DNA from: Pirellulales bacterium
GTDB taxonomy: Bacteria > Planctomycetota > Planctomycetia > Pirellulales > UBA1268
Length of the DNA: 64,000 bases
Assembly: GCA_044370415.1 (NCBI GenBank)
Contig: JBILVO010000001.1
Coordinates: 819-64,818, forward strand
Direction: 5' to 3'
The notes beneath the pieces were generated by a model. The model was not told the origin of the DNA. It saw only the letters and a list, made by a program, of their open reading frames with translations, and did not search any database. Shown here one piece after another: positions 5,482 through 64,000 of the stretch. The position numbers and the translations under genes are program-made. Each line of letters begins with the position of its first letter. Positions within the stretch are counted from its first letter, which is position 1.

Positions 5482-5530
5482 GATGGCTCCTGGACGTGCA
5501 TGGACTGGCGGCAGACCCATCGGGATTCTA

Positions 5531-5652
5531 GCTGGCTCTGGAGAAAGCCCTCCCTGGCCTTTTTCCACGAGGGCGAGCGGCGAAAAAGCCGAGGTTTTTC
5601 GACGCTCGCTGCCGCCGCCTCCAGCGGCGGATGACTTTATCCACGGCCTCCT
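5531..5652 (+). repeat. Copy 1 of ~122-bp structured intergenic repeat
   Basis: GCTGGCTCTGGAGAAAGCCCTCCCTGGCCTTTTTCCACGAGGGCGAGCGGCGAAAAAGCCGAGGTTTTTCGACGCTCGCTGCCGCCGCCTCCAGCGGCGGATGACTTTATCCACGGCCTCCT. Near-identical to 21322-21442, 43212-43333 and 63921-64000. Confidence 0.9.
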
Positions 5653-5712
5653 CGCGGGCAACAGACGCCGCCTCCACGGCCAGGATTCGCCACGGCGGCC
5701 GCCCGTCACCAC

Positions 5713-16239: not shown

Positions 16240-19200
16240 CTACCTGGCGAAGCCGACGAAGAAGCTGAAGAGCTGCTTGCTGTCGTACGGGGCGTAGACG
16301 ACCGGGAAGGCGAAGTCGAGCGCGATCGGCGCCGGCCCCATGGCCGGGAGCGTGATCCGCAGGCCCACGCCGGGGGCCACGCGCATGTTGCTGATGGAGA
16401 CGTTCGACTCGACCGTGCCGAAGTCGGTGAAGACCACGCCCCGCAACGAGTCGTCGGCCGTGATCGGAAACATGTACTCCACGGTGTTGAGCCACTCGAA
16501 CGGGCCGCCGATCACCGCCGCGGCCTGGGCCGAGCTCGTGGGCGAGGCGCCGGCCGGGGTCTGCCGCGGGCTCGCCCCGCGGAACGTGAAGCCGCGGATC
16601 GTGTTGTAGCCGCCCGCGAAGAAGTTGTCGTAGGCCGGCGTGTTGGGACCCGACATGCCGAGCACCGAGCCGATCGAGAGCACGTGCCTCCCGGAGCCGT
16701 CGGGCCGCTCGTTGAGCAGGAAGTACTGCCGTCCCTCGAGGATGCCGCGCGGGTAGACGAACGTGCCGATCACCTGCTCGAACTCGAAGGTGGCCAAGTG
16801 TCCCTGCGTCGGCAGGAACGGGCTGTCGCGGGTGTCGTGGATGAGACCGCCGCTGAAGCCGTAGACCGAGTTGGTGCCGAGCATGTTTTGGATGGCGGGG
16901 GTGATCAGACGCGGGTTGTAGACGTCGACGCTCTCGCCACGGAAGCCGGTGTTCACGGAGAGATTGGGGGCGAAGGCGAACTGATAGCCCAGGCCGACAC
17001 GGCCGCCGACCCGGCCTTCCGCCCAGTCGTAGAAGTAGCGTGTGTAGTAGGAGGCGCTCGTCGACAGGCCGATGCGGGTGTCGAAGAGGTAGGGCTCCTG
17101 GAAGGTCGCTGTGTAGCGCTGCAACTGCGTGCCGGGAGCCGCCTCGAGGCGGAAACGCTGGCCGGCGCCGCGGAAGGCCGTGCCGTTGCGGATGTCATCC
17201 CAGCTGGTGGGCAGCCGCGTGATGTCGAAGTTCTGCTCGTCGATGACGATGTTGCCCACGAGCCCGGCGTTGGAGTTCACGCCGGCACCGATCATGAGCC
17301 GGCCGGTCTGCGTCTCCTCGGCGTCGACGTCGACGACCACGTAGGGATCGTTGCCCGGAAACACCTGCAGCGGTTCGGCACCGAAGTTCGGCACCATGCC
17401 AGGCTGCGCCACACCGGGCTGCATCATGCCAGGCTGCATCATGCCAGGTTGCATCATGCCAGGCTGCGCCATGCCAGGCTGCATCATGCCCGGCTGCGCC
17501 GCTCCGGGCTGCATGCCCGGCTGGAACTGCACCGGCGCCACGAAGCCCTGCCCCTGGGGCTGCGCCACGGGCTGGCCGAACGCGGGCGCCGGCTGCTGCT
17601 GGGCCACGTAGACCGGCTGCCGCGGCGCGGGCGCGACGGTGCGGGAATAGTCGACGGCATCCGGGCCCGTCGGCGCCAGCGCCGCACCGCCCCACGCCGG
17701 CTGCTGGGCCACCGGCTGCGGCTGCGGAAACGCGGGCTGGCCCACCGGGCTCTGGCCGCGCCACACCGGCTGCGCCGCCACGGCCTCCTCGCGGGCCGCC
17801 TCGCCGTCAGGATTCCATTCCCCCTCGAGCACGAGGTCGAGCACGGCCTCCTCGTCGTCGGGGCTCTGGCCGCGGAACCCGGGCCGCTTCGGATCGCGGG
17901 CGATCTGGGTGTCGCTCTCCTCGGGTTTGCTGAACACGATCCGCGGCGCCTGCCCCTTGGAGGCATCGGCCATGAAGAGGCTGCTGGCCTTGAGCCGCCG
18001 CTCGTCGTCGCGGAGCTTGCGGATGTCGAGAATGTCCCCCGGCCGCAGCGACAGGCGGTTGAGCACGGTGCTGTGCCGGGTGTGCGGATGCTCGCCACGG
18101 ATGCGGACGTTGATCTTGCCCACGCGGTACCGCAGGCCCTCCTCGACGTTGTAGACGAGGTCGAGCTGCCCCGGCTCCTCGAGGAACCGCGGATCGGCGC
18201 GAATGTCGGCGAAGACGAAGCCGCGCCCGCCGTAGATGTCGCGGATCATCCCCAGGTCGGCATCCATCTTCGACTGGTTGAAGGGCTGGCCGCTGGTGAG
18301 CTTGAGGTCCCGCGCGATGAACTCGCTCTTGAACTTGCTGTTGCCCATGAAGGAGACGTTGCGCACGGTGTACCGCGGCCCCTCATTGATCACGAACGTG
18401 AGCATCGTCCAGTCGCGGTTGCCGCCGTTCACCACCTGCACCTCGCGGCCGACCTTGGCCTGGAAGAAGCCGAGGCTGCGGTAGTAGGCGGTGAGCGCCT
18501 CGATGTCGGCGTCGATCTTCGTGCGGTCGACGTCGCCGCCGAGCAGCCAGAGCACGCCCGGCTTCGACTTGATCTGCGTGAGCAGGCGGGCGTCGGTGGC
18601 GATCGTGTTGCCGACGAATCCCGTCCACAGCGACTTTCGGCTGCGGCCCTCGTCGATGAGGAACACCGCCCCCTTGTCGCCCGGCTTGCTCCCTTCGAGC
18701 GTCGTCACTTTCGCGCCGTCGTAGCCCTTCTCATGGTAGTAGGACTCGATCCTGCGGCGGGCCTCCTCCACGACGTAGGCGTCCATCGAGTCCCCCACCT
18801 CGATCTCGGCCTTCTTGCGGATCGTGCGGGTCGGCACCCGCTGGTTGCCCACGTAGGTGACGTGGCGGAGCATCGGACGCTCGACCACCTGGAAGATCAC
18901 GACCACGCCCTCCTTCACCCGCACGTACTTGGGATGGACGTCGACGAACTTGCGGCAGCGATGCAGCGTGCGCACGTCCTCCTCGATCGCCTGGGCGTCG
19001 AAGATCTGGCCGGCCCGCGTCACGAGCTTCGGCAGCTTCGAGACATCTGTGGCGTGGTTGCCCTCGATCCGCACCTCGACGATCCGATTCGACTCGTCCA
19101 CAGGCGCCACGGTCGCAACCTGTGCCGGCGCCGCTCCGGGCATGACTCCCGGCACTGCTCCCGGCACTGCGCCCGGCACTGCGCCCGGTGCGACCCCCGG

Positions 19201-19395
19201 CAGCTGGCCCGGCATGGCGGCGGCGGGCGGAGCCGGCGGTGCGGCCGGCGGCAGCGGCTGCTGCGCGGCGGATGGCCCGCCGAGCAGCAGGCATGTCGTC
19301 AGCGCGACGGCGCACGCGAGGCCCCGATGGGCCGGGAATGGCGCGTGGCGTCGGGGGAGACGAGCGACGGCGGAGAGGTGCTCGCGCAGGGACAT
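16240..19395 (-). CDS. bamA: Outer membrane protein assembly factor BamA/Omp85 with ~200-aa low-complexity insertion
   Basis: Signal peptide and POTRA-like repeats (..VEVRIEGNHATD.., ..VRNVSFMGNSKFK.., ..VGKINVRIRGEH..). C-terminal beta-barrel (..MIGAGVNSNAGLVGNIVIDEQNFD.. to ..LFSFFVGFAR). A Pro/Gln/Gly/Met-rich insertion lies between them. Confidence 0.85.
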   Translation of the reverse strand: MSLREHLSAVARLPRRHAPFPAHRGLACAVALTTCLLLGGPSAAQQPLPPAAPPAPPAAAMPGQLPGVAPGAVPGAVPGAVPGVMPGAAPAQVATVAPVDESNRIVEVRIEGNHATDVSKLPKLVTRAGQIFDAQAIEEDVRTLHRCRKFVDVHPKYVRVKEGVVVIFQVVERPMLRHVTYVGNQRVPTRTIRKKAEIEVGDSMDAYVVEEARRRIESYYHEKGYDGAKVTTLEGSKPGDKGAVFLIDEGRSRKSLWTGFVGNTIATDARLLTQIKSKPGVLWLLGGDVDRTKIDADIEALTAYYRSLGFFQAKVGREVQVVNGGNRDWTMLTFVINEGPRYTVRNVSFMGNSKFKSEFIARDLKLTSGQPFNQSKMDADLGMIRDIYGGRGFVFADIRADPRFLEEPGQLDLVYNVEEGLRYRVGKINVRIRGEHPHTRHSTVLNRLSLRPGDILDIRKLRDDERRLKASSLFMADASKGQAPRIVFSKPEESDTQIARDPKRPGFRGQSPDDEEAVLDLVLEGEWNPDGEAAREEAVAAQPVWRGQSPVGQPAFPQPQPVAQQPAWGGAALAPTGPDAVDYSRTVAPAPRQPVYVAQQQPAPAFGQPVAQPQGQGFVAPVQFQPGMQPGAAQPGMMQPGMAQPGMMQPGMMQPGMMQPGVAQPGMVPNFGAEPLQVFPGNDPYVVVDVDAEETQTGRLMIGAGVNSNAGLVGNIVIDEQNFDITRLPTSWDDIRNGTAFRGAGQRFRLEAAPGTQLQRYTATFQEPYLFDTRIGLSTSASYYTRYFYDWAEGRVGGRVGLGYQFAFAPNLSVNTGFRGESVDVYNPRLITPAIQNMLGTNSVYGFSGGLIHDTRDSPFLPTQGHLATFEFEQVIGTFVYPRGILEGRQYFLLNERPDGSGRHVLSIGSVLGMSGPNTPAYDNFFAGGYNTIRGFTFRGASPRQTPAGASPTSSAQAAAVIGGPFEWLNTVEYMFPITADDSLRGVVFTDFGTVESNVSISNMRVAPGVGLRITLPAMGPAPIALDFAFPVVYAPYDSKQLFSFFVGFAR
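17395..17520. repeat. 15-bp tandem repeats (catgccaggctgcat-type) inside bamA encoding (QPGMM)n
   Basis: About 8 consecutive 15-bp units read directly, translating to PGMQPGAAQPGMMQPGMAQPGMMQPGMMQPGMMQPGVAQPGM on the minus strand. Confidence 0.85.
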
Positions 19396-19652: not shown

Positions 19653-20810
19653 ATGGCCCCGCCCATGCCGCCCACGGTCATCGATCTGCGCCGGACCGAC
19701 GACGTCCGTGACGTCGTGCATCGGGCGGTGCAGGCGCTGGCCGAGGGATGGGCGGTCTCCTTCCCGACCGAGACCGACTACGTGGTGGCCGCCAGCGCCC
19801 GCCACGCGACGGCGATCGAGAGGCTGGCGGCGCTGACACCCGAGCAGCCGCGACAGCCGCGGCTGTCGCTGGCGCTGAAGAGCGCGGAGGAGGCGCTCGA
19901 CTGGGCTCCGCGGCTGAGCCCGATCGGCCGTCGGATCGCGCGGCGGTGCTGGCCCGGCCCCGTGACGATCCTCGTGCCCGACGACCACCCCGAGAGCCTC
20001 GTGCACAGGCTGCCGCCCGCCGCGCGGGCCGGCATCGTCGGCGACGGCCGGCTGCGGCTGCGGGTGCCGGGCCATCCGATGCTCGCCGACTGCATGCGGA
20101 TGCTGGCCGGCCCGATCGTGCTCGCGGAACCCGGCGGCCCGACACCCGCCGTGACGGCCGCCGACGTGCTCGATCGCGTCGCCGGCACGACAGCGCCGCT
20201 GGCCCTGGTGATCGACGACGGCCGCGCCCGCTATGCGCAGCCGGCGTCGATGATCGAGGTCGACGACACGGGCTTCCGCATGGTGCAGCCGGGAATCGTC
20301 TCCGAGGAGACGCTGCGGCGACTGTCGAGCCTGATGGTGCTGTTCGTCTGCACCGGCAACACCTGCCGCAGCCCGATGGCGGAAACAATCTTCCGGCTGC
20401 TGGTGGCCGAGCGGCTCGGCTGCCGCCCCGACGAGATCGAGCGGCACGGCGTCGTGGTCGCCAGCGCCGGCATCGCCGCCTGGGGGGGTGGCAAGGCGAG
20501 CACGGGGGCGATCGAGGCGATGCGCGAGGCCGGCGGGGATCTTTCCGGCCACGCCAGCCAGCCGGTCACCGAGAACCTGATCCGCCAGGCCGACGTGATC
20601 TGGACGATGACAGCATCCCACCGGGCCGCGCTGCTGGCCCAGTTTCCCGAGGCCGGCGGCCGGGTGGCCCTGCTCTCACCCGACAGGATCGACGTCATCG
20701 ATCCGATCGGCGGCACGCTCGAAACCTACCGGAAATGTGCGGCCGACATCCGCAAGCATTTGGCGGGCCGAGTGGATACACTTCTGCAGGAGGCGCTCGG
20801 GATCGCTTAG
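19653..20810 (+). CDS. Fusion protein: TsaC/YrdC/Sua5-family (threonylcarbamoyl-AMP synthase-like) N-domain plus low-molecular-weight protein phosphatase C-domain
   Basis: N-domain motifs FPTETDYVVAASA and CWPGPVTILV. C-domain has the LMW-PTP P-loop VLFVCTGNTCRSPMAE and the D-loop VIDPIGG. Confidence 0.85.
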   Translation: MAPPMPPTVIDLRRTDDVRDVVHRAVQALAEGWAVSFPTETDYVVAASARHATAIERLAALTPEQPRQPRLSLALKSAEEALDWAPRLSPIGRRIARRCWPGPVTILVPDDHPESLVHRLPPAARAGIVGDGRLRLRVPGHPMLADCMRMLAGPIVLAEPGGPTPAVTAADVLDRVAGTTAPLALVIDDGRARYAQPASMIEVDDTGFRMVQPGIVSEETLRRLSSLMVLFVCTGNTCRSPMAETIFRLLVAERLGCRPDEIERHGVVVASAGIAAWGGGKASTGAIEAMREAGGDLSGHASQPVTENLIRQADVIWTMTASHRAALLAQFPEAGGRVALLSPDRIDVIDPIGGTLETYRKCAADIRKHLAGRVDTLLQEALGIA

Positions 20811-20845: not shown

Positions 20846-21322
20846 ATGCGGATTGCCATCGGAAGCGACCATCGCGGGGTGTCACAGAAACACCGCCTGG
20901 TCGGGTTTCTCGAGCGGCAGGGGCACCAGGTCGTCGATTGCGGCTGTCACGGTGACAACGCCGTCGATTATCCGGACATCGCCGCCGACGTGGCCCGCCG
21001 CGTCAGCGACGGCCACGTCGACCGCGGCATCCTGTTGTGCTGCACCGGCGTGGGCATGGCGATCGCCGCCAACAAACTGCCGGGCGTCCGTGCGGCGACC
21101 TGCCACGACGAGGTCACGGCGGAGATGAGCCGGCGGCACAACGATCTCAACGTGCTCTGCCTGTCGGCGGAAATGATCGGGCCGGAGGTCCAGGAGAAGC
21201 TGATCCAGACCTGGATCGACACGCCGTTCGAGGGGGGCCGCCATGCCCGGCGGGTCGCGAAGATCGCGGCGCTCGAGCCGGGTGAGCCCCCGCGGCGTCC
21301 CGCCGGCGGAGAGCCGCGGTAG
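20846..21322 (+). CDS. rpiB: Ribose-5-phosphate isomerase B
   Basis: ATG 20846 in frame in ORF 19748..21322. MRIAIGSDHRGVSQKHRLVGFLERQGHQVVDCG .. GILLCCTGVGMAIAANK .. RHNDLNVLCL are classic RpiB/LacAB motifs. Confidence 0.9.
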   Translation: MRIAIGSDHRGVSQKHRLVGFLERQGHQVVDCGCHGDNAVDYPDIAADVARRVSDGHVDRGILLCCTGVGMAIAANKLPGVRAATCHDEVTAEMSRRHNDLNVLCLSAEMIGPEVQEKLIQTWIDTPFEGGRHARRVAKIAALEPGEPPRRPAGGEPR

Positions 21323-21442
21323 CTGGCCGTGGAAATAGCCCTCACTGGCCTTTTTCCACGAGGGCGAGCGGAAAAAAACCGAGGTTTTTCGCCGCTCGCT
21401 GCCGCCGCCTCCAGCGGCGGATGACTTTATCCACGGCCTCCT
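21322..21442 (+). repeat. Copy 2 of ~122-bp structured intergenic repeat
   Basis: Starts at the G of the rpiB TAG stop. The 3' 50 nt are identical to copy 1. Confidence 0.9.
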
Positions 21443-21782
21443 GGCCGATCGCGGGACGGCCCGGCCGCCGTGTTTCCGCGTCGCCGCCGCAGACACGTTC
21501 CGTCGCTCCATACCGCCCTGGGGCCGGCACCGCCGGGCTGCCGTTCGCCCCCGCCCGACGCGCCTGCCGGCCGCGTTGGGCAGGAAAACGGGGCTGATCC
21601 GGGAGCCGGCGAAAAGTAGTGGCGTCGTAGCGGTCGTACCGCCGCGAGGCCGAAAAAACGGGGGGGAAAACGCCCGCCGGTTCGTTGAACCGCCTCGTGG
21701 CGTTGGTATCGTCGAGTCCGTACACGGGGCCGCCGGCACGAGACGGCGGCCCGCCCCGGCGACCCGCAGGAATCCGCACGGC

Positions 21783-22355
21783 ATGCCTCTCGCGCACCAT
21801 CCTGAACCGGACGAAGTGGAGTGCATCATCCGCAACGGCGAGTTGCGCGACGCGATCGAGCCGTACCTGGACGAGGCGATCTGGGAGATCGATTTCCGCT
21901 CGCTGCCCACGGCCGTCGAGAATCGGTTCCTCGAGTCGATGCTCGCCTGGGAGCGGGCGCCGCTGGTGCCGATCGCCCGCTGGTTCGAGCCGCCGCTGGC
22001 CCTGCAGCCTGCCTGCACCCTGGACGACGAGCAGGTCCGCGACCGCCTCTGGGAGACGGTCGAGCGGCTCTACTCGCAGCGGGTCGTGCTCGACTTCACC
22101 GACCACCTCTCCGACCGCGAGCTCTACACACTCATCCGCCGCGACATCCTGCCGGCGACGGTGAAGCGGGTCGATCTGCCCGACAACTTTTTCAATTGGG
22201 ACTGCAGCGCCTGCGACCCGGGCGACGACTCGATCTGGCTCACCTACTACGCCTCCGACGAGGAGCGGCGGGAATGGAGCCTCGAGGAGGGCCGCGAGCC
22301 GCCGCCGCGGGCGGTGCCTCCCTACCCGCGGGCCCTGCCCACGGCGCCGGTGTGA
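21783..22355 (+). CDS. Hypothetical protein
   Basis: ATG 21783 (MPLAHHPEPDEVECIIRNGELRD..). Good G/C third-position bias. No motif recognised. Confidence 0.55.
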   Translation: MPLAHHPEPDEVECIIRNGELRDAIEPYLDEAIWEIDFRSLPTAVENRFLESMLAWERAPLVPIARWFEPPLALQPACTLDDEQVRDRLWETVERLYSQRVVLDFTDHLSDRELYTLIRRDILPATVKRVDLPDNFFNWDCSACDPGDDSIWLTYYASDEERREWSLEEGREPPPRAVPPYPRALPTAPV

Positions 22356-22429
22356 CGCGGGTTGCCCGCCGCTTCCTCCCGGCCGTAGGCTTCCCCGGGT
22401 CGCCGTACCGACACGAGGAGCCGCCTGCC

Positions 22430-23581
22430 ATGCCCGCCCGCCCGCCGTCCCGACGGCAGTGGTTGTTTGTCCGTCCACGCAGCCTCCTGGCGGCCGTCGC
22501 GCTGGCGGCGCTGCTCGTGCCGCCCGCGGCCCGCGGCGCCGACGAGGCGGCCGTCCGCGCCGCCATCGCCCGGGCCTCTGCGTTCCTCACCGAGCAGGGG
22601 CAGGCCGCGGACGGCAGCTTCTCTGCGCAGGCGGGGCCGGCCGTCACAGCGCTGGCAGTGACGGCACTGCTGAAGACGGGCACGCCCCCCGACGCCCCCG
22701 TGGTGCAGCGCGGCATCGCCTCACTGCTGGCGTTTCGCCAGGAGGACGGCGGCATCCATCCCCCCGACTCGGCCGTCGCCAATTACGAGACGTCGATCGC
22801 GCTGGTGGCCCTGGCCGCCTGCAACCATGACGGCCGCCACGACGACGTCATCAAGGCCGGGCAGGCGTTCGTGAGAGGACTGCAGTGGGACGACGGCGAG
22901 GGCCGGGGCGTGGCCGACCCCGCGTACGGCGGCGCCGGCTACGGCCGCAAGAAGCGTCCCGACCTGTCGAACACCGCCTTCCTCGTCGAGGCGCTGCGCG
23001 AGCTCGGTGCGGGCCCCGACGACCCGGCGATCCAGCGGGCGCTGGTGTTCGTGTCACGGACCCAGAACCTGGAAGGCCCCCACAACGCGCTCCCCTTTCC
23101 CGCAAAGAACCCCGACGGCGGCTTCTACTACACGCCGGCGGCGGGCGGCGAGAGCCAGGCAGGCACGACGCCCGAGGGCGGCCTGCGCAGCTACGGCTCG
23201 ATGACCTACGCGGGGCTCAAGAGCATGATCTTCGCGGGCCTCACGCGGGACGATCCCCGCGTGAAGGCGGCCGTCGAGTGGCTGGCGAAGCGCTACACGT
23301 TCGCGGAGAACCCGGGGCTGGGGGATGCGGGCCTCTACTACTACTTCCACACGGCGGCCAAGGCGCTCGACGCGCTGGGGGAGGATTCGTTCACCGACGC
23401 GTCCGGGACGAGGCACGCGTGGCGGAGCGAACTGGCCGACGCCCTCATCGCCCGGCAGCAGGCCGACGGGTCGTGGGTGAACGAGAACCCGCGCTGGATG
23501 GAGGGCGACCCCAACCTCGTCACGAGCTACGCGCTGCTCGCCCTGGCGCCGTGCCTGCCGCAGCAGCCGGCCAGGCCGTAG
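22430..23581 (+). CDS. Secreted prenyltransferase/squalene-oxidase-repeat (terpenoid cyclase-like alpha/alpha toroid) protein
   Basis: ATG 22430 gives a signal peptide (..LLAAVALAALLVPPAARGAD). Repeated Q/W-containing helical hairpins (..QEDGGIHP.., ..PDGGFYYTP.., ..QADGSWVNE..). Confidence 0.7.
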   Translation: MPARPPSRRQWLFVRPRSLLAAVALAALLVPPAARGADEAAVRAAIARASAFLTEQGQAADGSFSAQAGPAVTALAVTALLKTGTPPDAPVVQRGIASLLAFRQEDGGIHPPDSAVANYETSIALVALAACNHDGRHDDVIKAGQAFVRGLQWDDGEGRGVADPAYGGAGYGRKKRPDLSNTAFLVEALRELGAGPDDPAIQRALVFVSRTQNLEGPHNALPFPAKNPDGGFYYTPAAGGESQAGTTPEGGLRSYGSMTYAGLKSMIFAGLTRDDPRVKAAVEWLAKRYTFAENPGLGDAGLYYYFHTAAKALDALGEDSFTDASGTRHAWRSELADALIARQQADGSWVNENPRWMEGDPNLVTSYALLALAPCLPQQPARP

Positions 23582-23634
23582 CGGGCCGTGACGACAGTCG
23601 TCCAACGCCGGAGGCGGCGCGGCGACCATCCGCA

Positions 23635-25503
23635 TCACCCCCGCCGTGCGGCGACGGCAAGCAGGTCGGCCTCGGCCTGGGGATGGTCGGTGAGGATCCG
23701 GCGGAAGTCCTCGCGATCGAGCACCAGGAGGTCGCACGGCGTCACCGCCCGCACCGTCGCGCTCCGCGGCCGGTCGAGCAGCAGCGCCATCTCGCCGAAG
23801 CACTCGCCGGAACGCATGACGCCGAGTCGTTCGCCATTCGCCCCGAGCGCCTCCGCCTCGCCCCGGCAGATGACATAGAACTCGGCCGTCGTGTCGCCGC
23901 GCGCGACGACCGTCGCGCCGGCCTCGACCGCCAGCGGTCGAAACGACATCACCAGCGTGTTGAGCAGCACCGGCGGGGCCGACGCGAAGAGCTCGCTGCG
24001 GCCGAGGATCTCGCGGCCGAGGCACTCGTGCCAGCGCCGGCCGTCCCGCGCGAGCAGCGCGCTCGCGGCCCGCGGGCCCCAGGTGCCCGCCATGTAGTTC
24101 GGGAAATCGGCCGCCGGCGTCGTCCGCCAGACGTCGAGCACCGGCTGCATGATCCGCCACGAGGACTCCACGAAGTCGGTCCGCGAGAAGAGCGTCGGAT
24201 CGCCCGCCAGCGCGCTGTAGAGCAGCACCTCGTAGCCCGTCCCCCGCGACGCCTCGAAGGTCTCGGCGTAGTCGAACCGCATGCCTGCCCGCTGCAGCTG
24301 GAAGGTCGGCCCGGGCCGCTTCGCCTGCATGCGGATCTCGACCCCCTGGTGGGGCTGGATGTGGAAGATCAACAGGTTCGGCTCGTCCTCGCCCTTGAAC
24401 TGCACCACGATCTCGGTGCCGCGCTTCCACAGCGCCTTGCCCGACCGCAGGTAGACCGGCATCCCCGCCCAGCGGTCGTTGTCGATGTGCAGCCTCACGG
24501 CGGCGAAGGTCGGCGTGTTCGACTGCGGATCGACGTGGGACTCCTGCCGATAGCCCACCGCAGCGCTGCCGTCCGCCCGCGTGCCGGGCCCGTACTGGCC
24601 GCGGACGCAGCAGCCCGCGACGTCGTCCGGGCCGAACAGCCGCACCGACTCCAGCAGCCGCGACTTCGCCTCACGAACCGCCCCCGGGTCGAACGACGCC
24701 GGCGGCTCCATGCAGACGTAGGCCAGCATCTGCAGCAGGTGGTTCTGCAGCATGTCGCGGACCACGCCGGTCTTGTCGTAATACTCGCCGCGGGTCTCCA
24801 CGCCCACGGTCTCCGTCGCGGAGATCTGGATGTGGTCGATGTGCGCCGCGTTCCAGAGCGGGGTGAACATCCCGTTGGCCATCCGGAAGGCCAGCAGGTT
24901 CTGCACGGTCTCCTTGCCCAGGTAGTGGTCGATGCGATAGATCTCGTCCTCGCGCCATTTCGCGAGCAGCGCGCGGTTGAGGGCCACGGCGGAGTCGAGG
25001 TCCTTGCCGAAGGGCTTCTCGACGATGATCCGCCTTCGGCCCGGAAGCCGCGTGAATCCGGCGGCGTCGAGCTGATCGTTGACGACGTGGAAAAAATCCG
25101 GGGAGATCGCCAGGTAGAGCAGCGTGTTGTCGGCGGCCGCCGTGCCGGCGGCGACGTCCCGCACCATGTCCCGCAGCCCCGCGTACGAGGCCGGGTCGGC
25201 GAAGTCTCCGCCCATGTAGTGGAGCCGCGACTCGAGCCACCGCCAGCGGTCGTCGTCGAACGACTTCCGCGTGCTGAATCCGCGGATGTCCCGCCGCTGC
25301 TGCTCGCGGAACTCCGCGGTCGTCATCTCCTTGCGGGCCATGCCGACGACGGCGAACTCCTCGGGCAAGAGCCCGTCGCAGGCCAGGTTGTAGAGCGCCG
25401 GCATCAGGAGCCGCTTGGTGAGGTCGCCGCTGGCTCCGAGGATGACGAGCACCCCCGGCGCCGCGACCGCCGATCCACTCTTCGACTCCGGTTCGCCCCG
25501 CAT
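23635..25503 (-). CDS. zwf: Glucose-6-phosphate dehydrogenase fused to a C-terminal cyclic-nucleotide-binding domain
   Basis: G6PD motifs LVILGASGDLTKRLLMPALYNL, EKPFGKDLDS and RIDHYLGKE. An extra ~129 aa C-terminal to ..GTWGPRAASALLARDGRRWHE carries the cNMP-binding signatures GECFGEMALL and RSATVRA. Confidence 0.9.
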   Translation of the reverse strand: MRGEPESKSGSAVAAPGVLVILGASGDLTKRLLMPALYNLACDGLLPEEFAVVGMARKEMTTAEFREQQRRDIRGFSTRKSFDDDRWRWLESRLHYMGGDFADPASYAGLRDMVRDVAAGTAAADNTLLYLAISPDFFHVVNDQLDAAGFTRLPGRRRIIVEKPFGKDLDSAVALNRALLAKWREDEIYRIDHYLGKETVQNLLAFRMANGMFTPLWNAAHIDHIQISATETVGVETRGEYYDKTGVVRDMLQNHLLQMLAYVCMEPPASFDPGAVREAKSRLLESVRLFGPDDVAGCCVRGQYGPGTRADGSAAVGYRQESHVDPQSNTPTFAAVRLHIDNDRWAGMPVYLRSGKALWKRGTEIVVQFKGEDEPNLLIFHIQPHQGVEIRMQAKRPGPTFQLQRAGMRFDYAETFEASRGTGYEVLLYSALAGDPTLFSRTDFVESSWRIMQPVLDVWRTTPAADFPNYMAGTWGPRAASALLARDGRRWHECLGREILGRSELFASAPPVLLNTLVMSFRPLAVEAGATVVARGDTTAEFYVICRGEAEALGANGERLGVMRSGECFGEMALLLDRPRSATVRAVTPCDLLVLDREDFRRILTDHPQAEADLLAVAARRG

Positions 25504-39467: not shown

Positions 39468-39689
39468 TCAGCCCGTCAGGCCCAGCAGTCGCGGGATCGG
39501 CAGCTCGTCCGCGACGTCGAGCGTGACCTCTCCCAGCGTTTCCGGCTCCAGTTCATCCCGCAGCACTCGCACGTTCGGCGGTGCCTCGATCCCGATCCGC
39601 ACCTTGTCACCGCTCACCCGGACGATCGTGACGACCACCGAATCACCGACCCGAATCCGTTCGTTCTGCTTCCGTGACAAGACCAGCAT
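39468..39689 (-). CDS. csrA: Carbon storage regulator CsrA (73 aa)
   Basis: ATG 39689 preceded by GGAGGT. MLVLSRKQNERIRVGDSVVVTIVRVSGDKVRIGIEAPPNVRVLRDEL is a canonical CsrA sequence. Confidence 0.9.
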   Translation of the reverse strand: MLVLSRKQNERIRVGDSVVVTIVRVSGDKVRIGIEAPPNVRVLRDELEPETLGEVTLDVADELPIPRLLGLTG

Positions 39690-39721
39690 GAGTACCTCCG
39701 TGCGCTCGTGATGTGGAGATG

Positions 39722-39751
39722 AATATAGCGGCACTGCTATACAAATGTCAA
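39722..39751 (-). promoter_or_regulatory. Sigma-70-like promoter candidate for csrA (TTGACA - 18 nt - TATATT)
   Basis: Minus strand reads TTGACAtttgtatagcagtgccgcTATATT, about 30 nt upstream of the csrA SD, in a locally A/T-rich patch. Confidence 0.45.
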
Positions 39752-43194: not shown

Positions 43195-43211
43195 CACCGG
43201 GGCGGCAGTTC

Positions 43212-43333
43212 CGTGGCTGTGGAAAAAGCCCTCCCTGGCCTTTTTCCCCGAAGGGCGAGCGGCAAAAAGCCGAGGTTTTTCTGCGCTCGCTGCCCCCGCC
43301 TCCAGCGGCGGATGACTTTATCCACGGCCTCCT
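43212..43333 (+). repeat. Copy 3 of ~122-bp structured intergenic repeat
   Basis: Fills the gap between convergent stops (43192-43194 and 43332-43334). Its 3' end overlaps the panB stop codon. Confidence 0.9.
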
Positions 43334-44150
43334 ACCCCAGCGTCTCGCCGGGCCCGGGAAAGGACCGCTCCTCCACGTCGCGGCGCCAGCGGGCGACCGC
43401 GTCGCGAATCGTGCCGCCAACGTCGGCGTAGGACCGCACGAACCGCGGCACCCGGTCGAGCGACAGCCCGACCAGGTCGTGCATCACGAGCACCTGTCCG
43501 TCGCAGTGCGGCCCGGCGCCGATGCCGATCGTGGGCACGTCGAGCGAGCGTGTGATCCGCGCCGCCACGTCCTGCGGAATGCACTCCAACAGCACGGCAC
43601 AGGCGCCCGCATGGGCCGCCGCCTCCGCGTCGGCCAGCAGTTGGTCGACGTCCCGCTGCATGCGGTAGCCGCCGAGCTGGTGCACGGCCTGCGGCCGCAG
43701 GCCCACGTGCCCGATCACGGGGATGCCGGCGGCGGCGATGCCGGCGATGACGTCGGCCTGCCCGGCGGTGCCCTCGAGCTTGACGGCCTGGCAGTCGGTC
43801 TCCTTCAGCAGTCGCGCGGAGGCCTCGACGGCGGTCCGCACCCCGAGGTGCTGCAGTGGGAACGGCAGATCAACCACCACGAACGCCCGCGACACCGCCC
43901 GGCCCACAATCTCGCCGTGATAGATCATCTGCTCGAGAGTGGCCGGGATCGTCGACGACCGGCCAGCCACCACCATGGCGACGCTGTCCCCCACGAGCAC
44001 GCAATCGACGCCCGCCTCGTCAGCCAGCCGCCCCGTGGGCCAGTCGTAGGCCGTCACCATCGTCAGGGGCCGACCGGCACGCTTGGCGGCGGCCAGATCG
44101 CGCACGGTGACCCGGCGGGCTCCGGGCGGCGGCGATGCGGGAGTGGTCAT
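43332..44150 (-). CDS. panB: 3-methyl-2-oxobutanoate hydroxymethyltransferase
   Basis: VTVRDLAAAKRAGRPLTMVTAYDW .. VDCVLVGDSVAMVV .. VKLEG. I prefer ATG 44150 over track start 44219 because of N-terminal length relative to known PanB and a TATAAT overlapping 44219. Confidence 0.85.
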   Translation of the reverse strand: MTTPASPPPGARRVTVRDLAAAKRAGRPLTMVTAYDWPTGRLADEAGVDCVLVGDSVAMVVAGRSSTIPATLEQMIYHGEIVGRAVSRAFVVVDLPFPLQHLGVRTAVEASARLLKETDCQAVKLEGTAGQADVIAGIAAAGIPVIGHVGLRPQAVHQLGGYRMQRDVDQLLADAEAAAHAGACAVLLECIPQDVAARITRSLDVPTIGIGAGPHCDGQVLVMHDLVGLSLDRVPRFVRSYADVGGTIRDAVARWRRDVEERSFPGPGETLG

Positions 44151-45262: not shown

Positions 45263-45335
45263 GCGGGTGTAGCTCAGTTGGTAGAGCACCACGTTGCCAA
45301 CGTGGTTGTCGTGGGTTCGAATCCCATCACCCGCT
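45263..45335 (+). tRNA. tRNA-Gly (anticodon GCC)
   Basis: Manual cloverleaf: acceptor GCGGGTG/CACCCGC, D arm GCTC-AGTTGGTA-GAGC, anticodon arm CCACG-TTGCCAA-CGTGG, variable TTGTC, T arm GTGGG-TTCGAAT-CCCAT, discriminator T. No encoded CCA. Confidence 0.9.
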
Positions 45336-45487: not shown

Positions 45488-46978
45488 ATGTCTGCTCCCG
45501 CCAGCCCCACGTCCGCCCCCGGCTCCCCCGTTTCCGGCGACGAGTCGGCGACGCAGCCCCTGAAGCTCGAGGTGGCGATCGACAAGGTCTCCGCGTGCGA
45601 ACGCCGCGTGCGGGTGACGGTGCCACGGGAGGACATCGATCGCTACCGCGACCTGGCGCTGGGCGACATGATGCCGGCCGCCATGCTGCCCGGCTTCCGT
45701 CCCGGTCGGGCGCCGCGCCGCCTGGTCAGCAGCCGGTTCAAGTCGGAATTGTCGGATCAGATCCGCAGCAAGCTCCTCGCCGACGCGATGACGCAGGTGT
45801 CGGAGCAGGAGAAGCTGTCGCCCATCAGCGAGCCCGATCTCGACGTCAACGCCGTCATCATGCCGGACGACGGCGCGATGACGTTCGAGTTCACCATCGA
45901 GGTGCGGCCGGAGTTCGACCTGCCGGACTGGAAGGGCCTGTCGATCCGCCGCCCCTCGCGAACGATCTCGGACGCCGACGTCGAGGAGTCGCTGACGAAC
46001 CTGCTTCGCGAGCGGGCACGATTCGTGCCCCACGACGGCCCCGCGGCCGCCGGCGACCTCGTCGTCGCCACCCTGCGGTTCCTCGACGGCGACACGCTGC
46101 TGTCCGAGGCGACCGACCTGGAGATGATCGTCCGCCCCCGACTGTCGTTCGCCGACGCGGAGGTGGAGGGGTTCGACAAGCTCGTCGCCAAGGCCCGCCC
46201 AGGCACGACCGTCACGACGGCCGTGCGGGTGTCGGACGAGGCGGCCGTGGAATCACTCCGCGGTAAGGACGTGACGATGGAGGTCGTGATCGCCGACGTC
46301 AAGACGCTCGAGCTGCCCGAGCTCGGTGCCGAACTGCTGGAGGAGCTGGGCGGCTTCGCGTCTGCAGACGATCTCCGCTCCGCGGTCCGCAAGCAGCTCG
46401 AGGGCCAGCTGGAGTGGCATCAACGCCGCCAGGTCCGCCAGCAGGTGTCCAGCGCCCTCACCGCCTCGGCCGGCTGGGACCTGCCCCCCGACCTGCTGCG
46501 GCGCCAGAGCCTCCGCGAGCTCGAGCGGGCCATCCTCGAACTGCGTCGCAGCGGCTTCGACGACGACGCGATCCGGCAGCACGTCAACGAACTCCGTCAG
46601 ACGGTCATGGGAAGCACGGCCCGCGCGCTCAAGGAGCACTTCATCCTGGAGCGGATCGCGGAGGACCAGTCGATCGCCGACACCGCGGCCGACTACGACG
46701 AGGAGATCCGCGCCATCGCCGCCCAGTCGGGCGAATCGCCGCGCCGCGTGCGCGCCAACCTCGAGAAGCGCGGGCTCATGGACGTGCTCCGCAACCAGAT
46801 CATCGAGCGGAAGACGATCGACCTCGTGACATCGCACGCGAAGTTCACCGACGTACCGTTCGAGTTCCAGAAACGCGATGCGGAGGCCGTGGACCATGCC
46901 GTCTGCGGCGCCATCGTCGGCGAGGAGGAGATTCCGACGGCGACCCACCCGGAGCCCGCCGCGCCACGCCGCTCCTGA
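45488..46978 (+). CDS. tig: Trigger factor
   Basis: ATG 45488. Ribosome-binding signature GFRPGRAPRRLV after ..LKLEVAIDKVSACERRVRVTVP... Position directly upstream of clpP. Confidence 0.85.
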   Translation: MSAPASPTSAPGSPVSGDESATQPLKLEVAIDKVSACERRVRVTVPREDIDRYRDLALGDMMPAAMLPGFRPGRAPRRLVSSRFKSELSDQIRSKLLADAMTQVSEQEKLSPISEPDLDVNAVIMPDDGAMTFEFTIEVRPEFDLPDWKGLSIRRPSRTISDADVEESLTNLLRERARFVPHDGPAAAGDLVVATLRFLDGDTLLSEATDLEMIVRPRLSFADAEVEGFDKLVAKARPGTTVTTAVRVSDEAAVESLRGKDVTMEVVIADVKTLELPELGAELLEELGGFASADDLRSAVRKQLEGQLEWHQRRQVRQQVSSALTASAGWDLPPDLLRRQSLRELERAILELRRSGFDDDAIRQHVNELRQTVMGSTARALKEHFILERIAEDQSIADTAADYDEEIRAIAAQSGESPRRVRANLEKRGLMDVLRNQIIERKTIDLVTSHAKFTDVPFEFQKRDAEAVDHAVCGAIVGEEEIPTATHPEPAAPRRS

Positions 46979-47042
46979 GCGCGGCCAATCCCCGGCTCCA
47001 GCGCCCCCCGCCACCCGTCCCATCCGTCATCCGAGACATCCC

Positions 47043-47669
47043 ATGCACGATCGCGCATTCGTCCCGCACGCCTCCAGCGCCTACCGCGACTACCAGCGTC
47101 AGCGGCAGATGACGCTGGGCGACCTGCTCCTGGAAAACAGGATCATCCTGCTTCAGGGCGAGATCTACGACGGCAACGCCAACGAAGTGGTCATGAAGTT
47201 GCTCTACCTGCAGAGCGAGAACCGCCGCAAGGACATCCACTTCTACATCAACTCGCCGGGCGGCAGCGTGACGGCCACCATGGCGATCTACGACACGATG
47301 CAGATCCTCTCCTGCCCCGTGGCCACCTACTGCGTGGGGCTCGCCGCCAGCGGCGGCGCGGTGCTGCTCGCCGGCGGCGCGAAGGGGAAGCGTTTCGTGC
47401 TGCCGCACGCCAAGGTGATGATCCACCAGCCCTACGGGCAGGTCGGCGGGCAGGTCAGCGACATCGAGATCCAGGCGGACGAGATCATCAAGACCCGGGC
47501 GATCCTCAACGAGATTCTCGCCCGCCACACCGGCCAGCCCATCGAGCGGATCGCGAAGGACACCGACCGCGACCGCTACCTGACCGCCACCGAGGCGAAG
47601 GAATACAGGCTCGTCGACGAAGTGCTCACGAAGCCGCCGGCGGCGCCGGAGGACGAGGGCAAGGATTGA
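47043..47669 (+). CDS. clpP: ATP-dependent Clp protease proteolytic subunit (paralogue 1)
   Basis: ATG 47043. [23 protein letters not shown] (Ser) .. AKVMIHQP (His) .. DTDRDRYL (Asp). Confidence 0.9.
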
Positions 47670-47730: not shown

Positions 47731-48345
47731 ATGCCCCTGATTCCCTACGTGATCGAGAAGAGCGGCCGCGAAGAGCGGGCGATGGACATCTACAGCCGGC
47801 TCCTCAAGGACCGGATCGTGTTCCTCGGCTCGCAGGTCAACGACGAGGTCGCCAACGCGATCGTGGCGCAACTTCTGTTCCTGCAGTCGGACGACCCGAA
47901 GGCGGACATCCATCTCTACATCAATTCGCCGGGCGGCAGCGTCACGGCGGGTCTGGCCATCTACGACACGATGCAGTTCGTGACCTGCGACGTGGCGACC
48001 TACTGCATCGGCCAGTGCGCCTCGATGGGCGCGGTCCTGCTCACCGCCGGAGCCAAGGGGAAGCGGCGGGCGCTGCCGAACGCCCGCATCATGATCCACC
48101 AGCCCCTGGCCGGCATGGAAGGCACGGCGGAGGAGATCATGATCCACGCCAAGGAATTCAAGAACATCAAGCACAAGCTCAACGCGATCCTGCTCAAGCA
48201 CACCGGCCACCCGCTGGAGAAGATCGAGCAGGACACCGATCGCGACCGCTTCATGTCGGCGCACGAGGCGATGGAGTATCGGCTCATCGACGAGGTGATC
48301 GACCGGATGCCGACCGCCGGCAAGGTGGAGCCGAAGGGCGGTTGA
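47731..48345 (+). CDS. clpP: ATP-dependent Clp protease proteolytic subunit (paralogue 2)
   Basis: [23 protein letters not shown] .. [13 protein letters not shown] .. ARIMIHQP .. DTDRDRFM. Confidence 0.9.
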
Positions 48346-53037: not shown

Positions 53038-53107
53038 TCGGAGCGACCGGGCCGACCCCCGCGCCGCATGCGGGAACCCGGATGCGTCCTGGCAATGCGT
53101 CCTCGCA

Positions 53108-53145
53108 GGCCGTGGAAGGCTTTTTCCAAAAGCCAGTGAGAGACC
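53108..53145 (+). repeat. Possible degenerate/truncated relative of the 122-bp repeat
   Basis: GGCCGTGGAAGGCTTTTTCCAAAAGCCAGTGAGAG shares the GGCCGTGGAA 5' end and the GGC(C)TTTTTCCA arm with the full copies. Confidence 0.3.
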
Positions 53146-53260
53146 CCTGTCTAGATCGCATTCGACGTACGTTTAGTACCGGCTCGGAGGCGGCAAAAGT
53201 CTCGTCGCGTGGGCCGCGGCGGCCCACAGCTCCTCGAGCCCCTTTTCTAGAGCCTCTTTT

Positions 53261-54277
<1,017 letters not shown>

Positions 54278-58483: not shown

Positions 58484-59191
58484 GTGGACACAGGGACTTC
58501 TCGCATGGCCGCAGGACTCTCCGATCCCGTCCACGATGCGGCCGGCGAGGCTCCCGAGGACCGCTACCGCGCGGTCGCCGGGGCGGCGATCGCGGCCGCC
58601 GCTGCGGCCCTGCTCTCCCCGCTGGCCTTCATCGACTTCGCCCTGGCGGCGGTGCCGCTGCTCGGCGTCGTGCTCGGGCTGGTGGCGCTACGGACGATCG
58701 CCAGCCGGCCCGACGAGCTCATCGGCCGCGGTCTCGCGATCGCGGCGATCGCGGTGTCGGCGGTGTCGCTCGTGGCGGGGCTCGGCACCGTCTCGCTCCG
58801 CTACGCCCGCGAGCTTCCCGAGGGCTACGAGCGGATCGATTACGGGCTCCTGCAGCCGCTGGCCGGGGACCCGGCCGACGCCATCCCCGATACGGCCCGG
58901 GAACTCGACGGTCGCAGCGTGCTGCTCAAGGGCTACATGTATCCCGGCAAGCAGCAGCACGGGATCACGCAGTTCCTGCTCGTGCGGGACCAGGGCGACT
59001 GCTGCTTCGGCGGCAATCCCAAGATCACCGATCGCGTGCTCGTGCAGCTCGACGATCCCGCCCACCCCAAGGGCATCGACTTCTCGCCGCGGCTCACGAA
59101 GATCGCCGGGAAATTCGTCGTCCGTCCCACGATCTCCCCGGGGCTCGACGGCGGCGTGCTCTATCACCTCGAGGCCGCTTTTGTCCGCTAG
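58484..59191 (+). CDS. Membrane protein: N-terminal 2-TM region plus C-terminal DUF3299-like domain with CC motif
   Basis: GTG 58484 lies 6 nt after AGGAG. C-terminal LDGRSVLLKGYMYPGKQQHGITQFLLVRDQGDCCFGG. Confidence 0.7.
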   Translation: MDTGTSRMAAGLSDPVHDAAGEAPEDRYRAVAGAAIAAAAAALLSPLAFIDFALAAVPLLGVVLGLVALRTIASRPDELIGRGLAIAAIAVSAVSLVAGLGTVSLRYARELPEGYERIDYGLLQPLAGDPADAIPDTARELDGRSVLLKGYMYPGKQQHGITQFLLVRDQGDCCFGGNPKITDRVLVQLDDPAHPKGIDFSPRLTKIAGKFVVRPTISPGLDGGVLYHLEAAFVR

Positions 59192-59834
59192 CGCTCGAGC
59201 CATTGCTTCCCGAGGTCCCACCGCCCGTGCATGCCGCGGCCGAACGCTCCTCCTGATCGCCGGCGGCTGCATCGTCGGCTGTGGTGCGCCGGCCGTTCCA
59301 GTGAAGACGCAGCCAGTGAAGACGCAGCCAGCGAAGACGCAGCCAGCCAACACGCAGCCAGCCGAGCCACGGCCCGCTACGCGTGCCCCGTCGGAGTCCT
59401 CCGCGCCGGCCGTGGCCGCGCCGAAGCCGGCCGCCACCACCGCCCCGGCGGCCCGCGCGACCAGCGTGCGCGACATCTCCTTTGACGACGTCAAGCTCGA
59501 GATGCAAAAGGGAGACCCGTTCACACGGGACCTGCTGCCCGCGCGGGTGACGTCGCTGGAGAACACCCGCGTGCGGATCCGCGGCTACATCCTGCCGAGC
59601 TTCCAGCAGACGGGCCTCACGCAGTTCGTATTGGTGCGCGACAACATGGAGTGCTGCTTCGGCCCCGGCGCCGCCCTGCACGACTGCGTCGTGGTGCGGA
59701 TGGTGCCGGGCAGGACGGCCGACTTCTCGATCCGCCCCGTGGCCGTGGCCGGCACGTTCCGCGTCGAGGAACTGCGGGGGCCAGACGGCCGCCATCTCGC
59801 GATCTATGCACTGGACGGCGAAAACGTGCAGTGA
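59181..59834 (+). CDS. Lipoprotein with (K/N)TQP(V/A) repeats and DUF3299-like domain with CC motif. Non-ATG start inferred.
   Basis: The frame has no ATG upstream of the lipobox ..RTLLLIAGGC. TTG 59181 (overlapping the upstream gene by 11 nt) or ATT 59202 are the only candidates. C-terminal NTRVRIRGYILPSFQQTGLTQFVLVRDNMECCFGPG. Confidence 0.6.
   Translation: MSASARAIASRGPTARACRGRTLLLIAGGCIVGCGAPAVPVKTQPVKTQPAKTQPANTQPAEPRPATRAPSESSAPAVAAPKPAATTAPAARATSVRDISFDDVKLEMQKGDPFTRDLLPARVTSLENTRVRIRGYILPSFQQTGLTQFVLVRDNMECCFGPGAALHDCVVVRMVPGRTADFSIRPVAVAGTFRVEELRGPDGRHLAIYALDGENVQ
59298..59372. repeat. 5 x 15-bp tandem repeat (ccagtgaagacgcag) encoding PVKTQ PVKTQ PAKTQ PANTQ PAEPR
   Basis: Read directly. 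The first two units are identical. Confidence 0.85.
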
Positions 59835-63921: not shown

Positions 63922-64000
63922 CTGGCTGTGGAAAAAGCCCTCCCTGGCCTTTTTCCATGAGGACGAGCGGCAAAAAAGCCGCGGTTTTTCGGCGCTCGCT
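63921..64000 (+). repeat. Copy 4 of the structured repeat (3' part cut by window end)
   Basis: GCTGGCTGTGGAAAAAGCCCTCCCTGGCCTTTTTCCATGAGGACGAGCGGCAAAAAAGCCGCGGTTTTTCGGCGCTCGCT. Starts at the G of the upstream TAG stop. Confidence 0.85.

Follow-up and report, generated by a model that had tools for sequence, protein, structure and literature searches.

A Three-Hairpin Repeat at Gene Ends in Uncultured Planctomycetota Is Probably a CTAG-Targeting Miniature Transposon

Introduction

The DNA analyzed here, a stretch of 64,000 nt with 70.9% G+C from a Pirellulales bacterium (henceforth, the window), carries four intact copies of a short structured repeat among its genes, several of them directly at a stop codon. 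An earlier note made from the letters of the window had described the three hairpins and complementary ends of this repeat and had proposed that it could be either a mobile element with terminal inverted repeats or an RNA-level signal. The locus raises the question of whether the repeat serves the genes at whose ends it lies or has simply inserted there. We conclude that it is probably a non-autonomous DNA transposon, that is, a miniature inverted-repeat transposable element (MITE), and that it represents a CTAG-targeting family that has spread through uncultured Planctomycetota. This family is previously undescribed and of an ordinary kind, and it agrees with the definition of a MITE in everything except that the partner is missing: the element is shorter than ~300 bp, lacks coding capacity, and has terminal inverted repeats, a direct target duplication, an empty orthologous site, and identical copies elsewhere. 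Of the options offered by the earlier note, MITE-type terminal inverted repeats is, thus, the one borne out. The element probably gives its host no function.

Four Copies of a 119-nt Element with Inverted Ends

A 37-nt probe from the 3' part of the repeat matched the window at 5612, 21402, and 43293 on the + strand with no more than one mismatch and had no matches in 100 shuffles, and the 5' part of a fourth copy at 63919-64000 was recovered by repeat finding and nhmmer as well as by a covariance model (CM). The four copies are where the earlier note placed them, and with their flanks they extend over 5528-5654, 21319-21444, 43209-43335, and 63918-64000. All intact copies are on the + strand and each is ~127 nt including the flanking 4-mers; the full length of copy 4, which is cut by the end of the window, comes from a second assembly that covers this locus (L048:1614-1740; labels of this kind denote related sequences outside the window). 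The features in the window are as follows:

5528..5654, + strand: copy 1, 127 nt with flanking 4-mers, CM match 123.6 bits
5528..5531, + strand: copy 1, 5' target-site duplication CTAG
5532..5547, + strand: copy 1, left terminal inverted repeat, CTGGCTCTGGAGAAAG
5538..5568, + strand: copy 1, hairpin 1, formed by the left-repeat core and its internal inverted copy, GGCCTTTTTCCAC, around the loop CTCCCT
5573..5609, + strand: copy 1, hairpin 2, GCGAGCGGCGAAAAA, loop GCCGAGG, TTTTTCGACGCTCGC
5612..5630, + strand: copy 1, hairpin 3, CCGCCGC, loop CTCCA, GCGGCGG
5635..5650, + strand: copy 1, right terminal inverted repeat, CTTTATCCACGGCCTC
21319..21444, + strand: copy 2, 126 nt, CM match 114.6 bits
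43209..43335, + strand: copy 3, 127 nt, CM match 107.6 bits
63918..64000, + strand: copy 4, ending at the window end, CM match 65.2 bits, truncated 3'
23578..23668, - strand: tentative decayed remnant of the 3' half, CM E-value 0.02
53102..53140, - strand: possible short remnant, weak, a 5' repeat-like segment joined to TTCCACGGCCTG, CM E-value 0.48

Pairwise identity between the copies is 89.9-92.5%, and in the final ~50 nt copies 1 and 2 are identical and copy 3 differs by 1 nt, in agreement with the ~90% identity and nearly invariant 3' ends that had been estimated by eye. The single orientation that had been reported holds for the four intact copies, for which it is a 1-in-8 chance event, and does not extend to the two tentative decayed remnants, both of which are on the - strand. 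The remnant at 23578-23668 has a local alignment score of 34 against a maximum of 32 for the window background and of 28 in 300 shuffles, and the one at 53102-53140 scores 33 against the same background maximum of 32.

Without its flanks the element is 119 nt long and is bounded by imperfect 16-nt terminal inverted repeats of the form CWGNCY-GTGGAWAAAG (family consensus CWGNCYGTGGAWAAAG). The complementary termini noticed earlier are, therefore, present and are longer than had been stated: the 5' end CTGGCYGTGGAAAAAG corresponds to GAGGCCGTGGATAAAG, the reverse complement of the 3' end, and this imperfect match covers 16 nt, a length that became apparent from ten related metagenome loci. When copies are oriented alike, the family order from 5' to 3' is CTAN, the outer left repeat CTGNCY, hairpins 1-3, the core of the right repeat GACTTTATCCAC, the outer right repeat RGNCTG, and again CTAN.

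A Direct 4-bp Duplication Explains the Position at Stop Codons

A direct repeat of 4 nt flanks the element on both sides; the earlier note, which called for flanking duplications to be recorded, had overlooked it. The flanking 4-mer is mostly CTAG, less often CTAA or CTAT, and TTAG also occurs. TA is retained at positions 2-3 on both flanks in 14 independent copies; in ten of these the two 4-mers are identical, and in 12 the variable fourth base agrees (binomial P = 0.002). The nonpalindromic pairs are informative: CTAT is paired with CTAT (L023 and L031) and CTAA with CTAA (L028), where an extension of the inverted repeat would give CTAT...ATAG, so the 4-mer is a duplication and not part of the inverted repeat. 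Because L031 and L039 represent one insertion, the CTAT duplication is seen in two independent copies. The 4-mers also differ within a single subfamily, which assigns them to the target rather than to the element. Read from sequence, direct 4-mers of this kind are the signature of a staggered 4-bp cut. We also considered an IS630-type insertion, in which TA inside CTAG would be duplicated; it does not predict a matching fourth base at the two ends and was rejected.

The preference for CTAG over CTAA, CTAT, and TTAG resembles the YTAR site of IS5, for which 4-bp YTAR target duplications have been reported (PMC5009759). In the window CTAG occurs ten times, against 61 (Markov model) to 170 (base composition) expected, and is, thus, ~6- to 17-fold under-represented; TTAA and CTAA do not occur at all in the 64 kb and TTAG occurs four times. 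Most of the CTAG sites in the window coincide with the ends of open reading frames (ORFs). TAG ends 13 of the 40 window genes, of which three adjoin an intact copy and a fourth (22274-23581, +) adjoins the tentative remnant at 23578-23668.

The junctions show how closely element and stop codon are linked. In five cases (copies 2 and 4, L006, L018, and L021) an incoming ORF stops with the TAG of the 5' 4-mer, and in four (copy 3, L003, L006, and L035) an ORF on the opposite strand stops with the CTA of the 3' 4-mer. In the window, rpiB (20846-21322, +; Pfam 9e-57) stops with the TAG at 21320-21322 in the 5' 4-mer of copy 2, an arrangement also present in four other assemblies; the TAG stop of panB (43332-44150, minus; Pfam 9e-100) is the CTA at 43332-43334 in the 3' 4-mer of copy 3; and a HEAT-repeat gene (62740-63921, +) stops with the TAG at 63919-63921 at the 5' end of copy 4. 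Two minus-strand genes flank copy 1: in the direction of their transcription, the stop of an S26 signal peptidase gene (5713) precedes it by 60 nt, and an 867-aa gene starts (5481) 47 nt after it. Not all flanks have been retained: the 3' duplication of copy 1 at 5651-5654 has decayed to CTCG, and the 5' 4-mer of copy 3 has decayed and is still CTAC in the orthologue L042. In L006 both copies of the duplication serve as stops of convergent ORFs; presumably the convergent genes shared one palindromic CTAG and each kept its stop after the duplication.

Because CTAG is very rare in this 71% G+C genome and is found mostly at TAG stops, copies adjoin the stop codons of rpiB, panB, and the HEAT-repeat gene. 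Target choice together with selection against insertions within genes, therefore, accounts for a position that looks functional, and a gene keeps its stop because the 4 bp are duplicated. We propose that a transposase encoded elsewhere in the genome would bind the GTGGAWAAAG repeats and cut with a 4-bp stagger; insertions would land on stop codons, since the remaining CTAG sites are mostly TAG stops, and the duplicated 4 bp would preserve the stop, also for two convergent genes that share one CTAG. Judged only from the 4-bp YTAR-type duplication, our best guess is that this transposase would be an IS5-group-like DDE enzyme.

Copies Move between Loci and Decay in Place

Evidence for mobility comes from relatives of the window. 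In L013 and L017, whose PanB is 88-89% identical at the amino acid level, panB ends at the same codon with ...GGC TAG, and no element follows. The spacer from panB to the convergent gene is 82 or 40 nt of unrelated sequence in these relatives and 137 nt in the window, 122 of which are the element, and no copy was found in ~20 kb around panB in either relative. Two copies in one metagenome-assembled genome (MAG), L030 and L035, are 100% identical over 127 nt and lie at different loci with different flanks, which indicates recent movement. Just past the end of the window, L048:1741-1793 is a 53-nt deletion derivative of a second, L041-type subfamily (termini CTGTCA...AGTCTG) that stands in tandem with copy 4 and shares its junction 4-mer; the genome, thus, hosts two subfamilies, and such a tandem would arise if a second element inserted into the CTAG that the first had regenerated.

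Once resident, copies decay. Hairpin 2 has been lost from the orthologue of copy 1 in L001, a ~95% identical relative, and from the orthologue of copy 3 in L042, where PanB is 99% identical, and in the tentative remnant at 23578-23668 the AT-rich parts have been replaced by G+C. The decay of resident copies argues that the host does not maintain the structure at individual loci.

The Family Is Found Mainly in Planctomycetota

An exact 21-mer from the 3' end had no matches in 185,579 species-representative genomes, from which the window's own subfamily is, thus, absent. The ten metagenome loci mentioned above were found in a 20-mer search and include L001 (the orthologue of copy 1), L004 (a 3' fragment), and L007, which shares only the termini and hairpin 3. 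We, therefore, also searched the species-representative genomes with the repeat cores alone (GTGGAWAAAGYC, a gap of 54-84 nt, and GRCTTTWTCCACNG) and obtained 24 loci, of which 20, across 13 genome assemblies, have the three-hairpin architecture. Eleven of the 13 assemblies are labeled Planctomycetota, Pirellulales, Planctomycetaceae, or Planctomycetia; the remaining two are labeled 'Ca. Kuenenia', but their contigs have 65-67% G+C. One locus that matches the pattern comes from a bin labeled Gammaproteobacteria. The closest PanB homologues are likewise in MAGs named Planctomycetota, Planctomycetia, or Pirellulales.

A locus from a Bryobacteraceae MAG (L024:2590-2695) carries an element of 98 nt, or 106 nt including the flanking 4-mers. 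Its 18-nt terminal repeats are perfect (CAGCCCGTGGATAAAGTC), CTAG adjoins it at either end, and its interior is unrelated to that of the planctomycete family. The same type of repeat, thus, appears to be used in Acidobacteriota. Because L024 and L007 keep the termini, and L024 also the duplication, with different interiors, the repeats and the duplication constitute the mobile unit.

BLAST searches of plasmids gave no match for the window-type element, the L041-type element, or the L024 repeat. In viral contigs the gapped pattern had no matches and a single repeat had five, four of which look like chance; the fifth is in a contig whose start lies within an element. L046 lacks any ORF of transposase size beside its match. 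We found no published description of the family in a literature search that covered few subscription journals; the papers on CTAG in Halobacterium that this search retrieved deal with methylation.

A variant repeat was observed in L018:2-149. It has the same three-hairpin layout and similar loops (CTCCAT, GCCTGAGG, and TTCCT), its stems are different (GCAAAAACG... and GCCCGGC...), and it has no recognizable GTGGAWAAAG termini; one and a half units are present in tandem.

Three Covarying Hairpins with Constant Loops

The three hairpins fold as originally described. Single-strand folds have z-scores of -2.4 to -5.4 relative to shuffles, and RNAalifold recovered all three hairpins independently from 25 family members. 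In the family form, hairpin 1 consists of GTGGAAAAAGCC, the loop YTCCNT, and GGCCTTTTTCCAC; hairpin 2 of a variable stem, which differs between subfamilies, around the loop GCCGAGG; and hairpin 3 of CGCCGC, the loop ATCCT, and GCGGCG. When the three hairpins were imposed on a plain MAFFT alignment of the 25 members, 88% of the cells pair, and changes on both sides were found in 15 of 33 pairs, ten of them within hairpin 2, which has 14 pairs. The alignment has a covariation score of 0.194, compared with 0.099 for shuffled alignments, none of 500 of which reach it, and every slid control is lower. By eye, hairpin 2 has ~8 distinct stems, each complementary to its partner arm, around the invariant GCCGAGG loop (e.g., GCGAGCGGCG, GGCAACACCCG, GACACMCCCA, GCCGACCGATGG, ATCGACCGCAGG, GTCGACCGGTG, and GCGACACCCC; the stem in the L018:2-120 variant is GAGCAGCGGGCACGAA). 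The loops are conserved as well: TCC is found in loop 1 of 26 and in loop 3 of 23 of 28 members, and loops 1 and 3 switch together between lineages, with CTCC accompanying CTCC in the window group and ATCC accompanying ATCC elsewhere.

The repeat core is clear at three places, namely the left end, the 3' arm of hairpin 1, and the right end, and is degenerate in both arms of hairpin 2 (e.g., ATGGAAAAGCC and GGTTTTCCAT in L030). The reading that we prefer is that the inverted core copies inside hairpins 1 and 2 would be extra transposase-binding motifs or part of a fold that aids transposition. Hairpins that are conserved between lineages and yet lost in single resident copies would then be explained by selection during movement and not at rest.

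A reverse-strand open frame of 38 codons (VDKVIRRWRRRQ...AFSTAS*) is preceded by AGGAGG in the window subfamily. We rejected a small protein because the frame is intact only in the 127-nt copies and broken in those of 125, 126, and 128 nt (10 of 30 copies, with length differences of 1-2 nt). In addition, the AGGAGG is 2 nt from the GTG and missing in other subfamilies, there is no conserved start context, and substitutions track stem pairing rather than codon positions.

Weighing the Explanations

Several points weigh against a MITE of the ordinary kind. No autonomous partner turned up in the window, across related loci totaling ~340 kb, or among the plasmid and viral collections; within the window, as the earlier note had already remarked, no transposase is nearby, and the 40-odd predicted genes either belong to housekeeping Pfam families or have no Pfam match. 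The repeat of Escherichia coli IS5 (GGAAGGTGCGAATAAG), the sole IS5-family repeat compared, is also 16 nt and has no convincing similarity to the repeats described here, and CTAT falls outside the YTAR consensus. The family is, thus, IS5-like in target and duplication, and its membership of IS5 is that of a candidate only. The empty panB sites are too diverged to define the junction to the base. Finally, the pairing of ~8 different hairpin 2 stems around a constant loop is not predicted by a plain MITE model. The interiors of MITEs are not usually conserved across a phylum's families, and covarying stems with constant loops in 13 assemblies are more conservation than such interiors normally show.

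The hairpins could instead mean that the repeat is a structure read as single-stranded nucleic acid, either through an undescribed mechanism that recognizes hairpins and makes a 4-bp staggered cut or as a mobile RNA module (e.g., paired CsrA-binding GGA hairpins) that transposition would have carried to gene 3' ends throughout Planctomycetota; we regard this as unlikely. A rival explanation would be movement as single-stranded DNA by a tyrosine HUH transposase (RAYT, TIRYT, or IS200/IS605 TnpA) that recognizes hairpins and an xTAG tetranucleotide, as for REP/REPIN- or PATE-like elements. An enzyme that binds hairpins would be expected to preserve covarying stems and conserved loops, and between lineages loops 1 and 3 do change in concert; moreover, GTAG-tagged REPs have been reported to supply TAG stops to flanking ORFs, and Rhodopirellula baltica to have many tyrosine-transposase genes with flanking repeats (PMC3733652). 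However, REPINs and PATEs lack a target duplication (PMC3119063, PMC3733652), whereas here the 4-mers are direct and vary between copies of one subfamily; an inverted tag would give CTAT...ATAG, which was not seen; and PATEs lack terminal inverted repeats (PMC3119063), which are present here. The right end is not itself a hairpin, no Y1 transposase is encoded in the 64-kb window, and L024 has the repeats and the duplication without the hairpins. We consider this route very unlikely. Domestication of the repeat as a structural element at gene ends, where it would act as a terminator, a stabilizer of mRNA 3' ends, or a nucleoid-protein site with mobility only in the past, would fit the stable folds and the location of most copies just downstream of at least one gene, with few between divergent genes, and hairpin 1 of the L041 subfamily is one weak terminator-like site. 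The CTAG target alone explains the gene-end position, though, and in the window-type element no T-run follows a stem. The closest relatives have the same genes without the element, hairpin 2 and flanking 4-mers are lost from orthologous copies, AT-rich parts of the tentative remnant drift to GC, and copies that are identical yet lie at different loci point to recent movement. All of this makes domestication highly improbable.

The proposal that the loops act in RNA is the one we find hardest to credit, and we judge it extremely unlikely that the repeat is a mobile module that, by inserting into untranslated regions, brings genes under post-transcriptional control and in which GGA-loop hairpins of the reverse strand bind or titrate CsrA or CUCC loops of the forward strand mimic an anti-Shine-Dalgarno sequence. 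Both loop motifs had been raised in the earlier note. Most members have reverse-strand loops AUGGAU/AGGGAG and AGGAU/UGGAG, as RNA the reverse strand has the more stable fold in 22 of 25 members (mean difference 4.3 kcal/mol), csrA is encoded in the window (39468-39734), and RsmW is the best, subthreshold Rfam match on the reverse strand of two different subfamilies. Its scores are 15.1 and 19.5 bits, far from the gathering score of 52, and since nothing passes the Rfam gathering thresholds the repeat is, as suspected from the outset, not a named Rfam family. Copies occur in both orientations relative to the genes that read into them (with the TAG stop 5' in five cases and 3' in four): copies 2 and 4 show the forward strand to the transcript of the upstream gene and copies 1 and 3 the reverse, so there is no orientation preference. 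Of 28 members, 5 lack the GGA/TCC triplet in loop 3 and 2 lack it in loop 1, and stem mismatches comprise 17 G-T and 24 A-C cells, an asymmetry between strands that is not significant. The window-type element also lacks sites resembling a promoter or a terminator, hairpin 2 is lost from resident copies, and relatives keep the csrA/panB neighborhood without any element. Nothing that we found in the sequences, thus, appears to favor the anti-Shine-Dalgarno/CsrA idea.

Two further candidates were set aside. An intrinsic terminator was rejected because the window-type element has no G+C-rich stem directly before a T-run. An integron attC site, considered for its position after stop codons and its structure-based conservation, was rejected on context, with copies lying 15-21 kb apart among housekeeping genes without a cassette array, and because the copies carry inverted repeats and a target duplication.

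Consequences for Annotation and Assembly

Recognition of the family gives a named explanation, one that can be searched for, to a repeat at which metagenome assemblies of freshwater Planctomycetota break; the contigs of L042, L047, and L032 end inside a copy. The repeat could also be misannotated as small ORFs. In public gene calls (L011:10497-10880 and L012:978-1361), copy 2 and the spacer that follows rpiB are covered by a minus-strand 'gene' of 127 aa, which is probably spurious and a product of the repeat. Furthermore, the family is a clean example of how target choice alone yields an apparently functional position, as a CTAG-specific element in a high-GC genome arrives at TAG stops. The covarying hairpins and the partner transposase are the only parts that merit further work, and the identity of the transposase would tell extra binding sites from a structure-dependent step.

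Other Features of the Window

The genes in the window include rpiB, panB, a bamA-like gene, G6PD, hemA, hemE, two clpP, tig, gap, and csrA. Directly upstream of rpiB, a gene at 19653-20810 (+) encodes a fusion of a Sua5/YciO/YrdC domain with a low-molecular-weight phosphotyrosine phosphatase domain. The gene at 23635-25503 (minus) encodes a glucose-6-phosphate dehydrogenase that carries a cyclic-nucleotide-binding domain at its C-terminus (Pfam cNMP_binding, 8e-21), an unusual fusion that is also present in a gene call of L011. The clpP paralogues are adjacent (46878-47669 and 47731-48345, +), share a 202-nt stretch of 77% identity, and lie downstream of tig and a tRNA-Gly(GCC) gene (45263-45335).

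Three tandem repeats were also observed. A 15-nt repeat, GCATCATGCCAGGCT, occupies 17391-17514 in ~7-8 units inside the bamA-like Omp85/POTRA gene (16240-19395, minus), and because it is in frame it encodes a pentapeptide repeat within an outer-membrane assembly protein. Another 15-nt repeat, CCAGCGAAGACGCAG, is found at 59298-59362 (4.3 units, 94% matching) inside the ORF 59181-59834 (DUF3299). A 14-nt repeat, GAGCCCCTTTTCTA, with 2.6 units and two TCTAGA sites, lies at 53236-53272, just downstream of the gap stop and near the possible remnant at 53102-53140.

Comparison with Known Systems

The closest parallels are the MITEs of the IS5 group and the related Tourist / PIF-Harbinger MITEs of eukaryotes, which are likewise short, noncoding, multicopy elements with ~16-nt terminal inverted repeats. 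The 4-bp YTAR-type duplication is shared with the IS5 group, and CTAG and CTAA are IS5 targets (PMC5009759). In contrast to IS5-group MITEs, the planctomycete element has a conserved three-hairpin module inside instead of arbitrary filler, and CTAT duplications also occur.

Correia (NEMIS), ERIC, RUP, and BOX are structured elements of ~100-150 bp that are listed as bacterial MITEs (PMC3733652). They are similar to the element described here in size, in folding of the whole element through terminal inverted repeats, in intergenic location near genes, and in the occurrence of internal-deletion variants; they differ in sequence and hosts and in forming one long palindrome, where the element described here has three local hairpins and a closing stem. 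Correia and RUP duplicate TA. The planctomycete element, unlike these two, duplicates CTAN and hence sits on TAG stops.

GTAG-tagged REPs and REPINs, which depend on RAYT and have been reported in Planctomycetes (PMC3733652), are also hairpin repeats with xTAG at the outer ends, and the tag is often the TAG stop of a neighboring ORF. However, REPs are 20-40 bp long, their GTAG or CGTC tag is part of the element, and they have no target duplication, whereas the element described here is 119 nt long with three different hairpins and a direct CTAN duplication that varies from copy to copy, and the window encodes no RAYT. PATEs and other IS200-IS605 derivatives differ in that PATEs have subterminal palindromes and neither inverted repeats nor a duplication (PMC3119063), both of which are present here. 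The small RNAs CsrB and RsmX/Y/Z/W (Rfam clan CL00106) resemble the reverse strand in two hairpins with GGA in the loop, as reflected in the weak, subthreshold similarity to RsmW; they are unlike the planctomycete element, which is far below threshold, has no promoter or terminator of its own, occurs in both orientations, and carries the inverted repeats and target duplication of a transposable element.

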